DNA from: a virus
Lineage: Duplodnaviria; Caudoviricetes
Strand: one strand, 5' to 3'
Length of the DNA: 56,711 bases
IMG/VR virus record: IMGVR_UViG_3300048587_000675
Span: 1 to 56,711 of that record
Every line of letters begins with the position of its first letter. The stretch's first letter is position 1. The translations under genes were made by a program, and so were the position numbers. Below the pieces are notes generated by a model. The model did not search any database, was not told where the DNA came from, and was given only the letters and a program-made list of their open reading frames with translations. Positions 27,741-55,366 of the stretch are shown piece after piece.

Positions 27741-28225
27741 TTTGTATATAATTCCATAAAAGCGGCATTTCTTGCATCTTCTATATTCATACCCTGGTTT
27801 ATATACTTTTCAATCGCTCTTTTATAATCCAGGTATTCGATATTAGCGTCTTCAATTATATTATAATCTAGTCTTCTAATAACGTCAAAAATGTTGTCCC
27901 AGTTTTGATTTTCTGTCTTAACATTTTTTATAGTTTCATTTATTTTATAAAATCTTGTCTGTATATCACGATTTCTAGCATTAGTTAGATCGTATATGAC
28001 TTTTCTCTTAGCTTTACTTCTTTTTGTCTTTTTTGTTAACTTATTGCTATAGTATTCTTCATTGAATACAGAAAGCCATTCTTTATCTTTTTGACTTAAT
28101 TCTTTATGATAATCTTGATCAACTAAATAACGTGAGCCTCTGCTAAACGTTCTAGGCTCTAGACCCCAAAGTTTTTTAGTTTTTTGCCTCTTGACCGTCT
28201 TCTTTTTCTTTTTTTGACGGCTCAT
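27737..28225 (-). CDS. Hypothetical basic protein
   Basis: DQDY...KEWLSVFNEEYY...NARNRD; coupled to neighbours. Confidence 0.6.
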   Translation of the reverse strand: MSRQKKKKKTVKRQKTKKLWGLEPRTFSRGSRYLVDQDYHKELSQKDKEWLSVFNEEYYSNKLTKKTKRSKAKRKVIYDLTNARNRDIQTRFYKINETIKNVKTENQNWDNIFDVIRRLDYNIIEDANIEYLDYKRAIEKYINQGMNIEDARNAAFMELYTK

Positions 28226-28550
28226 ACTTCACTTTCTTGTTAACGTAAAATATTACGTTTCTTTGATTTATTTTATAATTTAACATTTCTTTCATAACTA
28301 CATTGAAAGTTTTACATTTTGCAATGTCTTTTTTTTCAATATTATTATCGTTACACCACGATTTATAGTCAGAGTGAAGAACAAACGCTTTAATTGCATT
28401 AGTTCCTTTATCAATATTACATGATTTAATCCATTTGTCAATACTAACATACGGATTAAATTCGTTTTTTATCTTATCTCCAGTATAAGATTGGTGCTTT
28501 CTAACGAAAGATAGCAGTTTAGCTATTTCACTCTTGTCCTGATTCATCAT
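28176..28550 (-). CDS. Putative winged-helix DNA-binding protein (D5 primase C-terminal-like)
   Basis: KWIKSC...LHSDYKSWC...KTFNVVM pattern. Confidence 0.45.
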   Translation of the reverse strand: MMNQDKSEIAKLLSFVRKHQSYTGDKIKNEFNPYVSIDKWIKSCNIDKGTNAIKAFVLHSDYKSWCNDNNIEKKDIAKCKTFNVVMKEMLNYKINQRNVIFYVNKKVKYEPSKKEKEDGQEAKN

Positions 28551-29325
28551 TAAGCTTCTTTAGCTCATTTTCAGTATTATCGTATTCTTTGATATCTTCA
28601 TGTTTATCTTCAATAAAATGAAGCTTCACTTCGGATAATATAGGCATTTTAGTTCTTTCAGAAAACTTCTTCATAAGTCTACCAATTCGTGAGTGATCAG
28701 AAGAAGTGGGTTTCTTTCTAGATCTAAACTTTGACCTTCCAGGGGTGTGTACGATTTTATCAACTAAACCAACCGACAAAGCTTCATCTGCAGTTAAATA
28801 TAAATCTCGTCTCACAATACTATCCCAGAATGTCTTATCTAACCATGAATTATTGGCATAGATTTCATTATATGCATCTTGAACACGTTCAGCTTCTTTT
28901 ACATAAATCTGCATATCAGTGGTTTTGCCTTCAAATCCATCACTACCATCGTGAAGCATAATTGTAGAATTCCTGGATACATAACGTTCATCGCAAACCG
29001 CCATAATCACAGTGGCAGCACTCATAATTGCGCCTCTACCATAAAACACAAATTTACATGGGCTTTCAAGAATCTTATCTACGAGAGCCAGCGAATGGTA
29101 TGGACTACCACCATAGCTACAGCAATGAATCTCAATTGGTTCCTTATTAGTAAGGTCCAAAAGCTTATCGATACCGCGCACGGCTAAGGCGATAGATTCA
29201 AAGCCGATATCATCATCTCCAGCGCCATCTAGATAGCCCAGGTAGACCCTTCTATGAAATAGGTCTACACCGTAGCTTAAATAGGTTTGGAGAATACTAG
29301 GATCTTTACTCCGCTTCCCCGACAC
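28528..29325 (-). CDS. clpP: ClpP-like serine protease (peptidase S14)
   Basis: RRVYL, SYGG, catalytic MSAA / MLHD / RRDLYLTADEAL motifs; start revised to GTG at 29325 with AAGGAG RBS. Confidence 0.85.
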   Translation of the reverse strand: MSGKRSKDPSILQTYLSYGVDLFHRRVYLGYLDGAGDDDIGFESIALAVRGIDKLLDLTNKEPIEIHCCSYGGSPYHSLALVDKILESPCKFVFYGRGAIMSAATVIMAVCDERYVSRNSTIMLHDGSDGFEGKTTDMQIYVKEAERVQDAYNEIYANNSWLDKTFWDSIVRRDLYLTADEALSVGLVDKIVHTPGRSKFRSRKKPTSSDHSRIGRLMKKFSERTKMPILSEVKLHFIEDKHEDIKEYDNTENELKKLNDESGQE

Positions 29326-29848
29326 GCTTTTTCTCCTTATAAACACGATCAACAGCAATTGTGACAACGTAGTTAGATTTTAAAGCGTCGCTATGGAGTG
29401 TAACCTTTTTAACATCACCAGGAACGGTTCCGGTAAGAGCATCAATAATTTCCTTGGGGAGCTGATCATTATCAGAATTTCCAAGGACAATATAAGATTC
29501 TTGAGTTGGTACGCCTTCTGTTTCTTGCCCTTCAACTTCTTCTTTAACACGAAAACGAATAGCATTACCAAGAGCGGCGGGAGTTTCTGCTAATTCTAGT
29601 CCATATAGTTTTTCTTGTACAGACCAGACTGCTTCATTAATCTCTTCTTCTTTAACACCAAGCTTAGTTACAAGCAAAGTTTCAAGAGCGTCCATTTTTT
29701 GCTTAATGGCAATAAGACTCTTCTTAGTTTCATTTGTTAAAACTGTAGCAGCTTCGTAAACTTCAGCTTTAATATCGTCTTTTGTTTGAGCACGAGCAGC
29801 CATCAATACTGCTTGTTGAAAACTCATATTAGATTTAGGACTAGCCAT
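29306..29848 (-). CDS. Trigger-factor-like protein (linker helix plus degenerate FKBP domain)
   Basis: VKEEEINEAV...PAALGNAIRF...EG...YIVLG...LPKEIIDALTGTVPGDVKKV...VTIAVDRV follows the trigger factor linker/PPIase pattern; directly upstream of clpP. Confidence 0.6.
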   Translation of the reverse strand: MASPKSNMSFQQAVLMAARAQTKDDIKAEVYEAATVLTNETKKSLIAIKQKMDALETLLVTKLGVKEEEINEAVWSVQEKLYGLELAETPAALGNAIRFRVKEEVEGQETEGVPTQESYIVLGNSDNDQLPKEIIDALTGTVPGDVKKVTLHSDALKSNYVVTIAVDRVYKEKKRVGEAE

Positions 29849-32417: not shown

Positions 32418-34412
32418 TTAATCTTCAAATAGAGCAAATCCGCTGCCTTTTTTGGGTTTAGCAAAATCAAGCTTAAACCTAGTGGCATGATCTAGAAGCT
32501 CTTTAACAACCAGTGAGATTGATTTACTATGCAATCTACTTCGAATTACAATCTCTTGCAAATGCGCAATAGAAAATGAATTTACACCGGGATTGTTCTT
32601 TTCATCAAGAGCATCCTTCTCTTCTTTTGTTAGCTTTCTTTTAGCAATAAATTCAACCAGTGAGAGTCGTTCTTTCTGAGAAGGTGGCTCAATTTCAAGC
32701 ATCATATCAAAACGGCCAGGCCTTTGGGCCAAGGAAGCCATGAGGTTCTCAGGGTGATTGGTTGTAGAAATAATCATAGTTGGAATTTTAAACACGTTAT
32801 TAATACCATCGAGGAGGTTTAAAAGACTACTAGAAACTTCATCTCTTCGGCTATATCCCTCGTGACTACTTCCACCAATGTCTTCAATTACTAGAATAAG
32901 CTTAGTTGCTTCTGGTGTATATTCACTATATTTAGTAAAGAATTTAAATACAGTAGACGCGTCAATTTCAGAAGTTGGCCAGTTAATAACAACAGTACCA
33001 GGATCTTTATCTTTAATATCCTTTGCCGCTTGCATGATACTACATGTTTTACCGCAGTTATGAGTAACAGTAAAATCTTCCATTAAATATAAATGATCTT
33101 TGTCTACTGTAAATCCGTAATAATCATCCTCTGGCAACAATTCTAATTTAAATCCATTACGTAAAACATTTTTAATTTGTTTTCTTTTTTCTGCTTTCTT
33201 TCGCTTTAATCTAGAGGGGATCATGTCAATGTCACCTAAAATGGCAACTCTCCAATAAGTACCTTCAGTACCATTTTGACTTTTTTTCTTACAACTTTTA
33301 ATATATGCAGCAAGTCCTAATGATCTTGATAAATATACAACGTCATTTGCTAATTGTTTATTTACTGAAACGTAGTCAAATCTTCCTTTGTTTAAATTTC
33401 CATCGGTGTCTATAATTCCTGCCAAGAGTTCAAGTCTTTGTTGTCTAGAGCTTCTTAGATATTTAACAGGAATATGTTTGTTTTTAATAAGATTCAATGC
33501 TTTTAGTGCATTAAATGCGCGATTTTTTCCGACCTTGGGACCACCATTACGAGCCGTTATAGTATATGTTGAAGATTTATTATTAAGCTGAGTTTGTACT
33601 CTTACATCATGACCAACAACATTAGCATAATCATACCATTCTTGTTTGATTTCGTTATCCATAGTTGTTATGGCAGCCAAATTAGAACTACCATCTCCAA
33701 GCCACAGTCCAAGAACATAGGGATTAATTTCTAAATTTTGTTCTTTAAATTCTACTCCGACTTTATAAAGTTTTAATTTTTCATCATGCTTTGAAATGAT
33801 ATTATTTATTTCTATATTAAAAATTTGATTTTTTACAGAATGAACTAAACTTAAAATATGACCTTTATTTACAATAAAAGAATCACCCTTGGTTGGTATA
33901 ACTTTTACCATTTCTTGGCGACCTCTAACAAGTTTTAAAACCTCTCTGGGTTGACTGTCTGGTCCCATGAGTTTATCACCAACTACAATATCTTGAACAA
34001 GTTTAATTGAACCGTCATGCATTAAAATCCCTTGATTTTTTGCGTGACATCCAGGAAGGCCATATAACAATACGCCTCTCTTTTTTGGTTGACCTAGCTC
34101 TTCATATACAGATAAATTGTTAAAAAACATATCAGCTTCATTTAAAATCATGGCCGTATTTGTAACAGTTGTAAGAAGCTCTCTTTCAACAAATTCCATG
34201 GGGGCAAGTTCAACTGCCGTGCTGGTTTTATTTAAATTATAACTACCGGGTTTGATTACAATAGGCTTTTGTTCTTTTTCTTCTTTTACATAATCAAACT
34301 GTAATACGTAACCCTGGTCCTGTAGAGCAAGGTCGGACTCCGGAATAGTGTCAACCTTTCCTTCGTAAATATCTTTTAAAGTTGTTTTGTTTTTTAATTT
34401 AAAATTACCCAT
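32418..34412 (-). CDS. AAA+ ATPase interrupted by an intein (~333-aa extein)
   Basis: RGVLLYGLPG|CGKT Walker A, LVIED Walker B, LLNLLDG, TTN and RPGRFD motifs. Confidence 0.9.
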   Translation of the reverse strand: MGNFKLKNKTTLKDIYEGKVDTIPESDLALQDQGYVLQFDYVKEEKEQKPIVIKPGSYNLNKTSTAVELAPMEFVERELLTTVTNTAMILNEADMFFNNLSVYEELGQPKKRGVLLYGLPGCHAKNQGILMHDGSIKLVQDIVVGDKLMGPDSQPREVLKLVRGRQEMVKVIPTKGDSFIVNKGHILSLVHSVKNQIFNIEINNIISKHDEKLKLYKVGVEFKEQNLEINPYVLGLWLGDGSSNLAAITTMDNEIKQEWYDYANVVGHDVRVQTQLNNKSSTYTITARNGGPKVGKNRAFNALKALNLIKNKHIPVKYLRSSRQQRLELLAGIIDTDGNLNKGRFDYVSVNKQLANDVVYLSRSLGLAAYIKSCKKKSQNGTEGTYWRVAILGDIDMIPSRLKRKKAEKRKQIKNVLRNGFKLELLPEDDYYGFTVDKDHLYLMEDFTVTHNCGKTCSIMQAAKDIKDKDPGTVVINWPTSEIDASTVFKFFTKYSEYTPEATKLILVIEDIGGSSHEGYSRRDEVSSSLLNLLDGINNVFKIPTMIISTTNHPENLMASLAQRPGRFDMMLEIEPPSQKERLSLVEFIAKRKLTKEEKDALDEKNNPGVNSFSIAHLQEIVIRSRLHSKSISLVVKELLDHATRFKLDFAKPKKGSGFALFED
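33057..34049 (-). mobile_element. Intein with LAGLIDADG homing endonuclease (331 aa)
   Basis: Starts CHAK, ends VTHN, +1 Cys; LGLWLGDG and LLAGIIDTDG motifs. Confidence 0.92.
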
Positions 34413-37392: not shown

Positions 37393-37549
37393 AATTCAAA
37401 AACTCCTTAAGCGCCTTAATTAACATCTTACCAAGTTTAGTCATAAATGTCAATCTTTCTTTTACAACAATTGTTGATTTATTAACTTTAACAACCTCAT
37501 AAACCGGTCCACTTTTAAAATTGCTTATTTTATTCCATGTCATAATTTT

Positions 37550-39466
37550 TTACTCTTCTGATTCACCGGATGGCTCGCCAACTAATTTCATGCCGTCTTT
37601 TGTAATATCTATCTGAATTTTTTTATGTAAATTTGCCCCGTCAAATAAATGTGATTTGTAGAGCGTCCACTGTACACGAGCACCAATTCTTACCTGTTCA
37701 CCTTTAACAGTCTTTTCAAGCCACTTGAAGCGACTAGTTTGAAAAGTAAGCGCACTGAAGAAGTCTACGGCATTGCCGCCTGCGTTTGTGCGACCCGGCG
37801 ACCCCATGTTGGCATAGGTCTGGTTAATAACCAGGATGTGAATTTTATCTTTGTTTAGCTTAGGAACAAGTCTACGAAAACCTCTCTTGTTTACCTTAGC
37901 GGCAAGACCCATCTGCAGACTGTCGTCAACGTCAGTATCAGCCTCCGCCCTGGCTGGAGTATTACCGAGGCTATCAAAAACAACTAGAATTCGACCATCT
38001 GGGTCTGCTTCTTTAATGTATTCAATATACTTATCAATACCATCATAAGCATCTTCCAGATAGTCGGGTCTGATAAGAGCAATTTGTTCAGGATCTACAC
38101 CGCGAGAAGTAAGCCGTGCCCCAGTGGTCTTTTTCTCTGTATCTACCAAAATAACATGCACCCCTTGGGCTTGGGCATTCTTAATAGCTTCAATAGCAAA
38201 AGATGTATTATGGGTAACTGTAAAGTCTCCTAAGAGGAAAAGAGGGTCTTCTACTAAGGTAAACCCGTAATAGTCTCCTACCCCCAATGATTCAATCTTA
38301 AAGCCTGTAGTTAATGGATTTCGGTTACCATTGAAAGGAAGTGCTTTCTTTCTTTGCACACGACATGGAATTACATTTGTGTTTCCAGAGATTGAAATTC
38401 GATAATACTTTCCAGAAAAGCCGGTGGATTTAATAGTGCCGATTTTTTTGGTTTTAGTGACTCGAAATCCTAAAGAACCTGCAAGGAAAACTATTTGATC
38501 AGCTAAGGATTCAGATTTCTGAATTATCTCATAACAGCTCTTTCCTGTCGCATTAAGATAACCATCGGTATCCAATAGCCCCGCAAGCAATAAAAGCCTT
38601 TTCTCCCTGGAATTTACTAGATAGTTAGTCGGTATATATTTTTCACCATTCTTTACCAGTTCATTTCGAACAAAGTTTAATAATGGATTTAACCTGGAAG
38701 ATCCAGAGCCGGTGCTAGTGACGAATTCGTGTTGAGGACACTTTGCTGCGGCGTTTACGACTTCCTGATGTTGAACTTTGCGATAAATTAAGTTATTTTT
38801 ATTTGCAAATTCTTGATAATACTTGTCAAGCTCGGGTTCATTATTCGTAATCTGTGTTTTAGTTCTTGTACCATCACCAAGCCACAGTCCAACCCAGTAT
38901 GGATCATATTCAACAGGCTTATCTGTAAATTCAACTTCAGTTCTATGTAGTTTCAGATTATGTCTAGTTGTAATATTACTATTTAAATATTCACTAACTG
39001 ATAGATTTACAACTTCCCCAGTGCGTGTGTGTTTCAAATTAAGTATGTGTGACTCATTACACGACCACTCAAGGTTACCGTAGTTTGGAATAATTTTATA
39101 CATCATTTCTTGACCGCGCCCCAGTGCACCTACAGTTCTAGGTTTACTATCAGGACCCATGAGTTGATCGCCCACTTGAACGTCTTGTACCATTTTAATA
39201 GTACCGTTGTACATAAGAACCGGAGTATCTTTGGCTAGACACTTACCAGAATCGGTATTACCTGCAATCATAAACACATAACCGAATGGCAAACCCATAA
39301 CGCCCGTAGCTTCTTTAAACCATGGGTCTAGAACAACGAAGTCTTCTGGTTTGCTTGGAGTAATGATATCAGATCCTGTACCAAAGACTTGAGCGGAACG
39401 CTGGTCGTCTTTAAAACTTTTACGTATTTTCTCAGCTATTTTATTTAAATCTAGTTTTTTAGTCAT
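37550..39466 (-). CDS. recA: RecA/UvsX-like recombinase interrupted by an intein (~293-aa extein)
   Basis: GLPFG, AGNTDSGK|TS Walker A, VDTE, VVFDS, INQ and GGNA motifs. Confidence 0.88.
   Translation of the reverse strand: MTKKLDLNKIAEKIRKSFKDDQRSAQVFGTGSDIITPSKPEDFVVLDPWFKEATGVMGLPFGYVFMIAGNTDSGKCLAKDTPVLMYNGTIKMVQDVQVGDQLMGPDSKPRTVGALGRGQEMMYKIIPNYGNLEWSCNESHILNLKHTRTGEVVNLSVSEYLNSNITTRHNLKLHRTEVEFTDKPVEYDPYWVGLWLGDGTRTKTQITNNEPELDKYYQEFANKNNLIYRKVQHQEVVNAAAKCPQHEFVTSTGSGSSRLNPLLNFVRNELVKNGEKYIPTNYLVNSREKRLLLLAGLLDTDGYLNATGKSCYEIIQKSESLADQIVFLAGSLGFRVTKTKKIGTIKSTGFSGKYYRISISGNTNVIPCRVQRKKALPFNGNRNPLTTGFKIESLGVGDYYGFTLVEDPLFLLGDFTVTHNTSFAIEAIKNAQAQGVHVILVDTEKKTTGARLTSRGVDPEQIALIRPDYLEDAYDGIDKYIEYIKEADPDGRILVVFDSLGNTPARAEADTDVDDSLQMGLAAKVNKRGFRRLVPKLNKDKIHILVINQTYANMGSPGRTNAGGNAVDFFSALTFQTSRFKWLEKTVKGEQVRIGARVQWTLYKSHLFDGANLHKKIQIDITKDGMKLVGEPSGESEE
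38207..39241 (-). mobile_element. Intein with LAGLIDADG homing endonuclease (345 aa)
   Basis: Starts CLAK, ends VTHN, +1 Thr; VGLWLGDG and LLAGLLDTDG motifs. Confidence 0.92.
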
Positions 39467-44801: not shown

Positions 44802-46566
44802 CTAAAGATAGTAATTGTTGAAATTTCTCTCTTGGACTGTTTTGATATTGAGTGGTCTCTTTTTTCTCATCAGCCTTTCTAAGAGCATTAGCCCTTTCAA
44901 CAAATTTATTAAACTCGTCTTGTTCAATTTCAGTTAAAGGTCTAAAATCACCGTTCATAATATCATAAAATATACTATGTCTAGTATATACCCTTGTTGC
45001 ATCGTTTAAACCAACTTCTCGAATTTTACTATACTGCCAACCAGAGGCAGTTAAAGGAGTTTCAGCTTGAACACGTTTAAGAGGTTGCCAGACTGTTATA
45101 ATATAATCGCAAAACCAAGCAAATTGAGCAGCTCCATATGCAGCGTTAATACCCATTGGTGTGTCACCGTGACCGGCTCTTTCAATTGTACTTTGGTTTT
45201 GTATAATAAGAAAACAATTTAAATCTTCTGCGATTACTTTCATTAATCTGCACATTTCTTTTACAGAAATAGTCTTTACTTTACCTCTTCCGGAGTTTAC
45301 ATCAGTTGATACATCAAAATTAGGTTCCTTAGTTGTATCAATTTTATCTGAAAGAGCCATAAAGTGGTCAATAACGACGCACCCTGGTTTTTTGTTAAGA
45401 GATTTACAAGTGTCTTGTACAAATTTATAAATATGTTGCCAAGTTAGTCTTTCGTCTGTGTTTTTATTATCAATCACAAAAAGACGTTTACCATCTGGAT
45501 GATCCTTTCCAACTAGTTTTTGCCATCTTTGAACAATTTGTCTCGCTGGCATTTCTAAGCTGAAAAAGAAATGAATATCATCATTTGATTTCCTATTATT
45601 CATGATGATATCTTTAATAATTTTCAAACTGACACTCGATTTACCGGTGCCCGATCCGGCAACGACGCCAAGAACTTCGCCTTTACGCCAGCGTTCTTCT
45701 GTACAATCCCAGAAGCTAGGGCCATTTATTGCTTCATTTTTAACATATAAGCTTGCATCTTTTTCAAGATCAGAAATTGACATCGCAACATATTCTTGTT
45801 TCTCAGACAACCCCCTTGGGTCATACTTAGGATCATTTGTATATGCAGATTCAATTGTTCTTTGTAATTCATTTTCGGTAAATTCATCATCAATACAAGG
45901 GCTTTTTATCAATCGCTCATAAGCCTCGTCGATGGTATATCCCTGTTCTTGAAAATCTTTAGCAGCTTTATATGCTGAAATATTTCTTTTACCGGATTGA
46001 GCACCTTCTACAATAAACTCCATTGTTCCTCGTGATAGCTTACCTTTTGTAAGCTTTAACTCAAGCTGAGGTGCTTGTAGAATATTAGGCATTACATTTT
46101 CAGTAACAGGGTCAAGGGTTTTACCGTTATTTATATGAATAAGTTCTTTAGATTTATAATAAAATCTAGCAAAATCTTTACACTGTTGGTCAATGAAAGG
46201 AAATTTATTGGACAGGGAGTACCAAGTATTCTTGTATATCTCCCTGTCCATTATGGAGGAGGAAAGTGGAATAATAATTCTAAATCTATCTACAATCTTG
46301 TCATTCTTCTCAATTTGATGAGATTTAGATGTTAGAATGGCATATGTATATTCTTTAAATAACTCTTTAGCTCTTTCAATCGTACATCCTTCGTCAATGT
46401 CGATTGCAAAAACGTCACATCTAGACCAATTATTGCCGTGTCTATAATTATTGTTAAATAAAAACGGACTCCAGTCATATTTAATTGTAAAAACTGATAG
46501 TTCGTTTAAAGATGTAACTTTAATATCTACGGTTTCGGTCAATCCGTTTAATCTAGAAACAAACAT
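44779..46566 (-). CDS. Primase-helicase fusion (AEP-like primase, PriCT-like region, SF4-like helicase)
   Basis: IDID...SKSH...RFRIIIP primase motifs; GKRN; AGSGTGKS, SLEM, VVIDH; start revised to ATG 46566 with AGGAGG RBS. Confidence 0.8.
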   Translation of the reverse strand: MFVSRLNGLTETVDIKVTSLNELSVFTIKYDWSPFLFNNNYRHGNNWSRCDVFAIDIDEGCTIERAKELFKEYTYAILTSKSHQIEKNDKIVDRFRIIIPLSSSIMDREIYKNTWYSLSNKFPFIDQQCKDFARFYYKSKELIHINNGKTLDPVTENVMPNILQAPQLELKLTKGKLSRGTMEFIVEGAQSGKRNISAYKAAKDFQEQGYTIDEAYERLIKSPCIDDEFTENELQRTIESAYTNDPKYDPRGLSEKQEYVAMSISDLEKDASLYVKNEAINGPSFWDCTEERWRKGEVLGVVAGSGTGKSSVSLKIIKDIIMNNRKSNDDIHFFFSLEMPARQIVQRWQKLVGKDHPDGKRLFVIDNKNTDERLTWQHIYKFVQDTCKSLNKKPGCVVIDHFMALSDKIDTTKEPNFDVSTDVNSGRGKVKTISVKEMCRLMKVIAEDLNCFLIIQNQSTIERAGHGDTPMGINAAYGAAQFAWFCDYIITVWQPLKRVQAETPLTASGWQYSKIREVGLNDATRVYTRHSIFYDIMNGDFRPLTEIEQDEFNKFVERANALRKADEKKETTQYQNSPREKFQQLLSLVESKKND

Positions 46567-49289: not shown

Positions 49290-49331
49290 ATTATTAATTT
49301 CTTTTTATTTGTTTTTTTTAAAACCATTCTG

Positions 49332-49404
49332 CTCCGGGGGCAGGTACCGCCCCTGCCTTGACACTGGTTAACAGCCAGCCGCTTGCCTTCTCAGCCACCC
49401 CGGA
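49332..49404 (-). tRNA. tRNA-Asn(GTT), atypical T-loop, CCA not encoded
   Basis: Acceptor TCCGGGG/CCCCGGA plus discriminator G; D stem GCT/AGC; anticodon arm GCTGG-CTGTTAA-CCAGT; T arm GCAGG-GGCGGTA-CCTGC. Confidence 0.8.
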
Positions 49405-49425
49405 GCACAATGGTTTATTTTATTA

Positions 49426-52286: not shown

Positions 52287-52642
52287 TTAATCACGCTTTT
52301 AACTGGAACTTCTACTTCGATTTCATGATCAGACTCAACCACTCCGATGATATCCATTATATCACCAACTCTTACATATCTATCCTCTTTTACATGAAAA
52401 AAATAGTTTTGATCATGAATTTGATTTATTTGAAATATCCAGTTTTCAAACTGAGTTCTACCGGTGACCATGGTATAATCATATTCAGTTTTATATACAC
52501 AACCCTCGATTACCCTAGAAATAATATTCTCGCCGTTTTTTAATCTAAAAGTCGCAAATGATTTTTTAACATTAAACTTTCTTTTTTCCATGGTCCAAAT
52601 AGTTGTATCTTTTTTAAAAAGCTGCGCCAAATTCTTCAACAT
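52283..52642 (-). CDS. Hypothetical protein
   Basis: In operon. Confidence 0.55.
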   Translation of the reverse strand: MLKNLAQLFKKDTTIWTMEKRKFNVKKSFATFRLKNGENIISRVIEGCVYKTEYDYTMVTGRTQFENWIFQINQIHDQNYFFHVKEDRYVRVGDIMDIIGVVESDHEIEVEVPVKSVIK

Positions 52643-54035
52643 AAGTATTCCTTCTTAGTTTAGCATGTTTTTTAAGCCATTGCGTGTTACTTATCTCAAA
52701 GTCTATCACATATGCCTTCGTTTTACCAGGGTGTAATCTTACTGCCCTACCGATAGCCTGCGTTACGGCTATTTCACTTTTACCGCCTCTAGCTAGAATC
52801 AAATAGTCGGTAGATCTTATATCGGCACCTTCCCCTAGTACGGTTGAAGCCACTAGAATTCTTGTCTTTTTTTCATTAAATCGTTCCATAGCTTCAGTTA
52901 ACTCTTCTCTTTTATTATCCCCTGTTAAGTAGTCAACTTCAATTCCTGCTAAAGAAAGCCAATCTCTGATTTGTTCTCCTACTAACTCTTTTCTATCAAC
53001 AAGTATAAGTATTTGTTTATCCTTAGGAATTTCTTTTACAGTTTCAACGATAGCATCGTGGAACACTTTACCGCCGTAGTTAAGCTTATATTCATCTTGA
53101 TAATCACCGCCCATTGAACCTTTTAATTCTTTAATAATAAACTCAACGGGTGTTAAATATCCATCTTTAGTAGCTTGTACACTGTTATAAGTGTATAATT
53201 TTTCATCACATACTCCCCATAATTCCATGAACTTATTATCATTTCTAGTATAAGTGCCAGAGAAGTTAAAACGATAGTATACATCGTTCATATGCGGTAA
53301 AAGATTCATATAACTAGAGGCTGCGGCATGATGCGCTTCATCGATCATTAAACTTTGAACATGCTTCATGATTACACCAACAAGGTTTTGTTTAGTCAAA
53401 GAGGCAAGAGTTTGAACCGTTGAAATAAGGATGGGTTTAAGTTTTTTGTTTGATTTAATAGCTGTCGTATTTACTTGCATTACATTTTTACTACCAAAGT
53501 AGTTACTAAATACTTCATATGTTTGCTGTGACAATGCACTACTAGGTACTACAAACAACGTGTTAACACCAGTATTCTTAATGATATTGGCAGCAATAAG
53601 CGTTTTACCGCCACCTACACATACCTGAAATGTCCCTCTTGGCCTATCGTTTGCAATATCTATGCATTCCTGTTGATAATATCTAACTGCAGGTGGTTTA
53701 TTATTCCACCTAAACAAGTTATAAGGCTCAGGTTTAATTCTTTTATCAATTACAGTAGCAAATTCTTTAACCTTAAACAAAAGACCAGATGGAAACTGAT
53801 TATCTTTATCAAGCATACATATTACAACTTCACCAATCTTACTTATTTCACCAGCAAGAAAGTGAGCTTTACGCATTTGACGTCTTACTAAAGCCTTCTG
53901 ATATGCTCTTTGTAGAAACCTAATCTTCTTCTCTTTATCTTCATCATAATAAGATAACAGTTGAGCTGCTTTCTTTAACTCTTCTTCAGTTGCTTCTACA
54001 ATCTTAGAGTAACTGTTACCTTGTTCAATGATCAT
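52614..54035 (-). CDS. SF2 DNA helicase (UvsW/XPB-like)
   Basis: YYQ, VGGGKT, DEAHH, FSGT, GEGAD and QAIGRAVR motifs. Confidence 0.9.
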   Translation of the reverse strand: MIIEQGNSYSKIVEATEEELKKAAQLLSYYDEDKEKKIRFLQRAYQKALVRRQMRKAHFLAGEISKIGEVVICMLDKDNQFPSGLLFKVKEFATVIDKRIKPEPYNLFRWNNKPPAVRYYQQECIDIANDRPRGTFQVCVGGGKTLIAANIIKNTGVNTLFVVPSSALSQQTYEVFSNYFGSKNVMQVNTTAIKSNKKLKPILISTVQTLASLTKQNLVGVIMKHVQSLMIDEAHHAAASSYMNLLPHMNDVYYRFNFSGTYTRNDNKFMELWGVCDEKLYTYNSVQATKDGYLTPVEFIIKELKGSMGGDYQDEYKLNYGGKVFHDAIVETVKEIPKDKQILILVDRKELVGEQIRDWLSLAGIEVDYLTGDNKREELTEAMERFNEKKTRILVASTVLGEGADIRSTDYLILARGGKSEIAVTQAIGRAVRLHPGKTKAYVIDFEISNTQWLKKHAKLRRNTYVEEFGAAF

Positions 54036-54040
54036 AATTC

Positions 54041-54069
54041 AATATACCAGCTTTCTATGTTTACCACAA
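54041..54069 (-). promoter_or_regulatory. Sigma70-like promoter, probably giving a leaderless helicase mRNA
   Basis: TTGTGG-N17-TATATT with TG extension, 5 nt before the ATG; no SD sequence. Confidence 0.45.
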
Positions 54070-54070
54070 T

Positions 54071-54432
54071 ACTGTCAAATAGTTGACAAGTAAACAATAA
54101 GGGAACCTCATGGTGAAATAGCCATGGTTTACAATTAAAGTAAATTGTTATAGACGCATATACTTAGATTGACTATTTGCTTGTAGCTTCTCTTTTAAAG
54201 AGAGATTAAGCTAGGAAGCTCTTATATTTCACCTTTGCGCTAGGCACTGTAAACCAAGACGCCGGACATACCATGTCCTAATAGCTTTCCAAGTATTTTA
54301 TGTCTATATACGCCGTTTACGTTAAAGCGTTGTTCCCAGTCTATGACAGTTTCATTACTCTAACACTCTGCGCGTTTGCTATCACCGATGATTTATATTA
54401 AAGTCCTAAACAGCTTATCGGAACAAAGGACT
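54071..54432 (-). ncRNA. Candidate large structured ncRNA of unknown family
   Basis: 407-nt gap with no ORF in the track; more than 10 nested helices with G-U pairs favouring the - strand, and two 9-bp long-range pairings. Confidence 0.55.
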
Positions 54433-54442
54433 AACTTTAGAA

Positions 54443-55366
54443 TTACCAGAAGTCTTTAAAAATACCTTTAAGTTGATCATTTAAATGTTTTTTACCATGA
54501 AGATCTTCAGTATCTTCTTCTGGACCTTCATTAGAATTTGTAATTTTGTGTACTTTTTCTACTGCAGTCTTTAAGTCAACACCAATGCAGAGTACACTAA
54601 TAATAAGATCTTTCATTTGATCTATTGTTAAACCTTCTGTAAGCTTAACCCACAGTTCAATGTCTACTTTTTCATCAGGAAATGTTTTATTTTCAATAAA
54701 TATACGTCGAACTTCAGCTGAAGGAAGACCAACTTCGATTACAGTAGCAAATCTGCTTGGTCTATCTTTAATACGTGAAGGAATCTTATCTAAATAGTTT
54801 GTAGTAGCTATGTAAACAATATTGTCTACTTGCATTTCACCATCTAGAAGACTTAAGAAACTTCCCTCATCTCTATAAAGAAGTTGATCGAATTCTTCGA
54901 AAACTGCTAGAATCCTTTGATCACCTTGAATTTCTCTAATAATCTTAACACTTTCACTTAAAAGAGATGGACTAGGACAAAAGAAAACAATTCCACCTTT
55001 TTTAATTTCAGATTCAATGAGACGAATAATAACACTTGATTTACCAGTTCCATGTGAACCATGCAAAAGAATGCCTCTTTTATAAGTCATTCCTCTGCGT
55101 TCATAACGAAATCGCACATCTTTATTCCAGAAGTTATCAATCTCTTTAATAATATCTTCAGAAACGAAACTCGGAAGTTCTATCAGATTATCAGTCATGA
55201 TAGACATTGGTTCAAAGTAAATCTCACCAGATTGTGTCATACTAATAGTATATAAACCTGGGTTCATACTAGGGATTTCTTGAACTTTTCTAGTAGGAAA
55301 AAACCTACCTTCCATTTCCCTAAAATGATGATAAATTTTTTCAGTTTTATTGATTAAATTAGTCAT
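54443..55366 (-). CDS. AAA+ ATPase (second copy, intein-free)
   Basis: KRGILLHGSHGTGKS, VFEE, FLSLLDG, ATTN and RPSRF motifs. Confidence 0.9.
   Translation of the reverse strand: MTNLINKTEKIYHHFREMEGRFFPTRKVQEIPSMNPGLYTISMTQSGEIYFEPMSIMTDNLIELPSFVSEDIIKEIDNFWNKDVRFRYERRGMTYKRGILLHGSHGTGKSSVIIRLIESEIKKGGIVFFCPSPSLLSESVKIIREIQGDQRILAVFEEFDQLLYRDEGSFLSLLDGEMQVDNIVYIATTNYLDKIPSRIKDRPSRFATVIEVGLPSAEVRRIFIENKTFPDEKVDIELWVKLTEGLTIDQMKDLIISVLCIGVDLKTAVEKVHKITNSNEGPEEDTEDLHGKKHLNDQLKGIFKDFW

Follow-up and report, generated by a model that had tools for sequence, protein, structure and literature searches.

The locus described here raises the question of what occupies the long non-coding stretch between an AAA ATPase gene and a helicase gene of a phage genome: an undescribed structured RNA, as originally predicted from its many complementary segments, or something more ordinary. 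The window, meaning the whole stretch of DNA that was analysed, is a 56,711-bp IMG/VR virus record with an estimated completeness of 71%, and its right half is a single block of minus-strand genes. Three features define the locus:

54443..55366, minus strand: classical AAA (PF00004) ATPase gene, upstream of the gap
54036..54442, no strand assigned: non-coding gap, from the AAA ATPase stop to the helicase start
52614..54035, minus strand: SF2 helicase gene (ResIII/DEAD/Helicase_C), downstream of the gap

The description of this gap as the largest non-coding interval of the genome is borne out, as it spans 407 ORF-free nucleotides (taking ORFs of at least 40 aa as the yardstick) and is 2.6 times longer than the second-largest ORF-free stretch of the window, which measures 157 nt. 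Its GC content of 35.9% is close to the 35.6% of the window. The helicase is recognized by Pfam (ResIII, 3.4e-25; DEAD, 8.7e-17; Helicase_C, 3.4e-16) and PHROG (phrog_16, 8.3e-71), and its full-length relatives, of 471-493 aa, align from residue 1 onwards. The ATPase matches Pfam AAA (1.2e-08) as well as phrog_7485 and phrog_2376, and its nearest GenBank phage matches are annotated as ATPase or YjoB-like, none of them as an initiator.

The gap is truly non-coding. No ORF of at least 40 aa lies inside it under genetic code 11 or with TAG read as Q, and under code 4 it is touched by just two ORFs, one at 52614-54125 in which the helicase frame reads through and one of 40 aa that enters from the helicase side (54021-54143). 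Pfam matches none of the eight longest stop-to-stop frames, whose best PHROG E-values are just 0.072 and 0.24; a 33-aa ORF at 54300-54401 is absent from a collection of 15 billion proteins; and no period-3 signal is seen, with P 0.39 relative to shuffles and a place among the lowest 3% of native windows. A missed gene, an alternative genetic code and a recent pseudogene were therefore rejected for want of an ORF, protein similarity or periodicity, and a repeat or MITE-like element was rejected because the window holds no second copy of the gap, the longest shared word being 13 nt.

Known RNA families can be set aside as well. The original prediction had seen no hallmark of tmRNA, RNase P or group II introns, and the database searches agree: across the whole window, Rfam 15 gave no match at the gathering threshold and ARAGORN called no tRNA or tmRNA gene, so that the proposed cmscan comparison places no known family at the gap. 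With permissive filters, region 53900-54600 returned eight Rfam matches with E-values of 0.46-7, the best scoring 20.8 bits against a threshold of 60, and none was plausible up to E 10. Accordingly, tmRNA, RNase P, group I/II introns, GOLLD, ROOL, riboswitches and ribozymes were all rejected, none being found at the gathering threshold. The permissive mode is sensitive, having found a tRNA at 49332-49404 that both the whole-window run and ARAGORN missed. This divergent tRNA-like gene, on the minus strand of another gap (49290-49425), scores 34.1 bits against the Rfam tRNA model (threshold 29; E 1.1e-05), has the anticodon loop CUGUUAA (GUU) and an odd T-loop, and sits in a longer stem, with a 136-nt fold of z -5.42 that 0 of 200 shuffles equalled.

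The reading that we favour, at somewhat below even confidence, takes the gap for a non-coding spacer, specific to the lineage and set at a variable junction, that carries the transcription signals of the helicase. It is based on the non-coding character of the gap, on the variability of the junction, on a promoter-like element TGGTATATT close to a start codon that has no Shine-Dalgarno-like stretch upstream, on structure and motif signals that become marginal once controlled, and on the strain variant 54268 A>C, which breaks rather than preserves a predicted hairpin pair. Two features carry the putative signals:

54041..54049, minus strand: extended -10-like element TGGTATATT, found by a relaxed promoter scan, with its end 5 nt ahead of the helicase ATG
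54073..54088, no strand assigned: perfect palindrome TGTCAA-ATAG-TTGACA, unique in the window and located 38-53 nt upstream from the ATG of the helicase

The palindrome is operator-like in its position and might serve as an operator, and both candidate signals fit transcriptional control of the helicase without proving it. The window has four TGNTATATT sites, the element at 54041-54049 among them. If the promoter and operator roles are as they appear, the extended -10 element directly before the ATG would yield a leaderless or near-leaderless helicase mRNA, and the operator-like palindrome upstream of it would form part of the signals of the helicase operon. The gap would probably be transcribed together with this operon or just ahead of it, related phages would gain and lose accessory genes at the junction that holds the spacer, and the branched fold of the 237-nt core discussed below would be incidental, arising from a few inverted repeats with interruptions and involving no dedicated RNA machine.

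Compared with ordinary phage intergenic regulatory regions, the gap is similar in adjoining a gene that lacks a Shine-Dalgarno site and in having both an operator-like palindrome and an element of the extended -10 type; in addition, one relative, L083, has a near-consensus promoter in the same place, so that the lineage does include a case of a promoter there. It differs in its 2.6-fold excess over the next gap and in showing no canonical -35 or terminator. The 157-nt gap of the window (37393-37549) is by eye a clear promoter gap, with TTGACA-17-TAAGAT, and its GC content of 26.8% is lower than that of the gap considered here. Several observations count against the spacer reading. A strict scan of the gap finds no minus-strand promoter and no terminator, and the -35 that pairs with TGGTATATT is poor (TTGTGG, 3/6). 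A length of 407 nt is well above what a promoter and an operator need in so compact a genome. Moreover, the core folds with z -5.3, better on the transcribed strand, and among 25 control windows a single one holds a closed domain as good as this.

The variability of the junction emerges from a comparison of related loci. The helicase has 183 relatives at E <=1e-20, the closest, P0001/P0122 (contigs of 52,416 and 13,673 bp), being 76% identical and P0002 and P0004-P0012 60-74% identical, and the identical AAA ATPase is encoded on a contig of 84,373 bp; among the GenBank phage matches listed, the best identities are 26.5% for the helicase and 36.9% for the ATPase, and as judged from sequence the phage lineage is one without a close cultured relative. 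The loci compared, which come from searches anchored on the helicase and the ATPase, carry helicases with identities of 61% (L082), 62% (L163), 52% (L083) and 40-45% (L002, L003, L004), and none of the six shares any sequence with the gap. The junction could be compared in five of these loci, the sixth, L004, reaching only 68 nt upstream of its helicase. In L082 and L163, coding sequence for pentapeptide repeats abuts the helicase with no gap at all, the repeats being confirmed by Pfam in L082 and read in L163 from their near identity to those of L082. An HNH endonuclease gene lies upstream of the helicase in L003. The order of ATPase and helicase is kept in L083, with about 1.3-1.4 kb between the two; positions 864-1800, within this interval, hold an oppositely oriented DUF559 (Vsr-like) endonuclease gene and about 340 nt of ORF-poor sequence. 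In L002, a 658-nt ORF-poor and GC-richer stretch (2256-2913) lies upstream of a helicase that is 45% identical; it folds with z -2.2 and -2.4 (20 shuffles) and has neither an Rfam match nor similarity to the gap. Taken together, the non-coding stretches upstream of the L002 and L083 helicases have z-scores of -1.2 to -2.4 and no sequence in common with the gap. These loci show that the junction upstream of the helicase varies among relatives. The promoter of L083, by eye, is a near-consensus sigma-70 TTGACG-17-TATTAT that, together with an AGGAG site, lies just before the helicase-proximal ORF; within the ORF-poor sequence it comes after a directly repeated motif led by TCTTCACCC. The L163 helicase lies on a 4-kb contig that is binned into a metagenome-assembled genome labelled Candidatus Saccharibacteria, which could be a hint of the host or a binning artefact.

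No RNA run was among the sequencing runs listed, and comparison at the strain level comprised four DNA runs, only one of which (X1) covers part of the gap. This near-identical strain, from a wastewater run, spans 54123-54459 with three differences, and the divergence of the gap (3/337) is no higher than that of the flanking coding pieces (9/460), although the difference is not significant (Fisher P 0.26). In this respect the gap does not resemble unconstrained junk, which is a point against the spacer reading. The variant cited above, at a depth of 2.9, is internal and breaks a pair of the GGACAU/AUGUCC hairpin.

The principal rival to a spacer with transcription signals is the reading of the original prediction, in which the gap encodes an undescribed structured RNA on the minus strand, with a multi-branched domain of about 240 nt at 54101-54337 that acts in cis as a leader of the helicase operon or is processed into a stand-alone non-coding RNA. 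We regard this as possible, though on the whole unlikely; the more specific proposal that the 237-nt core forms a novel structured RNA of either kind, restricted to this phage lineage and with no Rfam relative, seems rather doubtful. The predicted elements are as follows:

54101..54337, minus strand: core, a predicted multi-branched domain closed by GGGAAC/GUUCCC
54149..54308, minus strand: inner domain, a three-way junction closed by a stack of three long-range helices (7+8+6 bp)
54402..54432, minus strand: hairpin 11 nt past the AAA ATPase stop, with a 6-bp stem, a 19-nt loop and a U/A-rich tail

Each of the pairings listed in the prediction exists; the seven long-range ones on which it was built are present as written, five of them perfect, and mismatches do turn into G-U pairs on the minus strand only, in two helices with one mismatch each. 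Four of the five nested helices recur in the minus-strand minimum free energy (MFE) structure, with mean pair probabilities of 0.78-0.98, while the outermost (54071-77/54344-50) is missing from it, with a probability of 0.0. The two crossing 9-bp pairings (54112-120/54225-233 and 54125-133/54248-256) exist too, but the pseudoknot or conformational switch that they had been taken to imply finds no support, as their pair probability is 0.0 and their occurrence is within chance: two perfect inverted repeats of at least 9 nt were observed in the gap versus 0.41 in shuffles (P 0.067), and 15.8% of 564 native windows hold two or more.

Folding of the gap as a whole is unremarkable. Its z-score is -1.90 on the minus strand, where 2 of 100 shuffles were equally good, and -1.52 on the plus strand, and after GC correction it ranks 23rd (minus) and 126th (plus) among 376 native 407-nt windows. 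Within the gap, 120-nt windows range from -2.1 to +0.8 on the minus and from -2.6 to +2.2 on the plus strand, similar to flanking coding sequence, and individual hairpins from +0.02 to -1.7; the shuffled-control check that had been proposed is thus not significant for the whole gap or its local windows. The hairpin at 54402-54432 folds with an MFE of -6.6 kcal/mol (z -0.16, with 83 of 200 shuffles as good) and is not called by the terminator scan.

The same check gives a different result for the core, whose boundaries were chosen on its helices. On the minus strand its MFE is -68.1 kcal/mol with z -5.32, better than 200 of 200 shuffles, compared with z -3.85 on the plus strand and -3.22 with DNA parameters; the closing helix has a pair probability of 0.78. 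The inner 160 nt reach z -3.65 on the minus strand (0 of 200 shuffles) and -3.27 on the plus strand (2 of 200), and the inner helices have pair probabilities of 0.93-0.98 and include the two G-U pairs that are possible only on the minus strand. These properties argue for a structured RNA, as do the location in the largest non-coding gap of the window, a divergence in X1 no greater than that of the flanks, and the absence of an Rfam match, by which such an RNA would be new.

The core z-score is, however, inflated because the boundaries were picked on the closing helices, and two background comparisons qualify it. In a scan of 7,060 minus-strand windows of 237 nt, with shuffle z-scores then computed for the top windows, the best sampled gap window ranked just beyond the 15 strongest local minima, and untuned windows reached -6.43 (28297-28533, coding), -5.92 (2513-2749, containing a terminator-like hairpin) and -5.21 (46201-46437, coding), set against -5.02 for the tuned gap core and -3.6 for the untuned one in the same comparison. 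When 25 control windows of 407 nt were given the identical boundary tuning, one reached z <=-5 (-5.3, with -6.6 when re-tested), the runner-up had -4.1 (-2.7 when re-tested), and three had no domain of that size. The tuned controls place the core at about the 5% tail of the genome's own sequence, and its folding signal against the genome background is suggestive, not decisive. A 164-nt closed fold at 28371-28534 (minus strand; z -6.6 with 100 shuffles), stronger than the gap core, lies within coding sequence, close to where ORFs 28176-28550 and 28528-29367 overlap.

Other features weigh against a structured RNA. The GC content of the gap is not above that of the genome and the stems are short and AU-rich. 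What a clear signal amounts to in this DNA is exemplified by the tRNA-like element, which combines a strong fold with an Rfam match. The sole internal variant breaks a pair, and no homologue was found in the collections searched. The gap DNA has no match in 50,697 phage records, nhmmer and blastn on 160 loci gave a best E-value of 1.1, and BLAST against the full records of three relatives returned just 21- and 15-nt matches. A single-sequence covariance model of the inner domain, run on seven sources, had a best foreign match of E 0.45. The pattern TGGTTTACA-N(100-130)-TGTAAACCA occurs in 55 IMG/VR stretches, about the chance estimate for an assumed database size, with wider similarity in none of them; an exact 18-mer of the gap has two chance matches and a 19-mer none; and Rfam has no match at E <=0.01 on six related loci.

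The known RNAs that the element most recalls are GOLLD and ROOL, which are far bigger than its 240-400 nt. Like them, the gap is a long non-coding stretch of a phage with a multi-branched predicted fold and a function that is not known; unlike them, it gives no match with cmscan, whether at the gathering threshold or with E up to 10, its stems are AU-rich and no conserved family could be assembled, and some 4.7 kb separate it from the nearest tRNA-like gene. GOLLD and ROOL, both of them Rfam families and the subject of a cryo-EM study (PMC12286853), are large ornate RNAs associated with phages or prophages.

Despite the z-score of -5.32 for the core, the evidence so far does not separate a structured RNA from an ordinary regulatory spacer; the whole-gap and local scores are ordinary, and z-scores as low occur in coding parts of the genome. 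Should the core prove to be a genuine structured RNA, it would represent a new phage RNA class from a lineage without a cultured relative and could point to control of replication genes at the RNA level. If the gap is an ordinary spacer, its complementarities of 6-9 bp and its repeated hexamer are those expected by chance in an AT-rich genome, and a hand-delimited domain with a z-score of about -5 is matched by coding segments.

It is also conceivable, although improbable, that the gap is a functionless remnant, the scar of an accessory or homing-endonuclease gene that was inserted and lost at a recombination hot spot. Relatives do hold differing accessory or endonuclease genes at this junction, and the lineage appears rich in homing elements: the helicase of one relative (P0003, 820 aa) carries Hom_end/LAGLIDADG domains, and two window proteins are intein-like. 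The latter, encoded on the minus strand at 37550-39466 and 32418-34412, are long proteins that combine a replication or ATPase match with a mid-protein match to the PHROG 'terminase large subunit'; one is UvsX-like over residues 421-596 and carries an insert at 66-431, the other a phrog_7485 ATPase with an insert, and the additional matches suggest inteins in both. In keeping with a recombination hot spot, a lake-water contig (X4) that is at least 95% alike over 54479-54704 ceases to match at 54479, in the last ATPase codons, 12 codons before the stop, which suggests that this strain has a different downstream junction. Against a remnant, the gap holds no leftover protein similarity in any frame and no period-3 signal, compact phage genomes shed useless DNA fast, and conservation of the gap in X1 is no lower than that of genes.

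The weakest of the readings, and to us a very improbable one, is a replication origin beside replication genes, in which the GTTTAC sites and inverted repeats would be protein-binding or unwinding elements. Its location among replication genes is suitable, the core has interrupted inverted repeats and a DNA fold of z -3.2, and the five copies of GTTTAC/GTAAAC noted earlier were confirmed, in alternating orientation (54059, 54090, 54127, 54249, 54315). Origins in non-coding repeat regions are known, for instance in PLE, a satellite of phage ICP1, whose origin is reported to lie in such a region, one bound by RepA (PMC7145576). The gap resembles the iteron-type origins in non-coding regions of phages, satellites and plasmids in being non-coding, placed among replication genes and furnished with a repeated short motif and inverted repeats; it is unlike them in that direct iterons and an AT-rich unwinding element are absent and the neighbouring gene does not appear to be of an initiator type. 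Between 53950 and 54500 there are no direct-repeat families (seed 7, length >=8), and the gap has no match to the DnaA-box or IHF consensus. It also has no AT-rich unwinding stretch, with 24/30 in its most AT-rich 30-mer and a GC content equal to the genome mean; the cumulative GC skew does not turn at the gap; and the adjoining ATPase is of the PF00004-type AAA, with no initiator family matched. The enrichment of the hexamer, as a signal of an origin, is within chance: the five copies compare with 0.39 expected, but an enrichment equal to or above that of GTTTAC is seen for some hexamer in 32 of 278 native windows, and a coding stretch of about 300 nt near 1691-2020 also holds five copies of GTTTAC.
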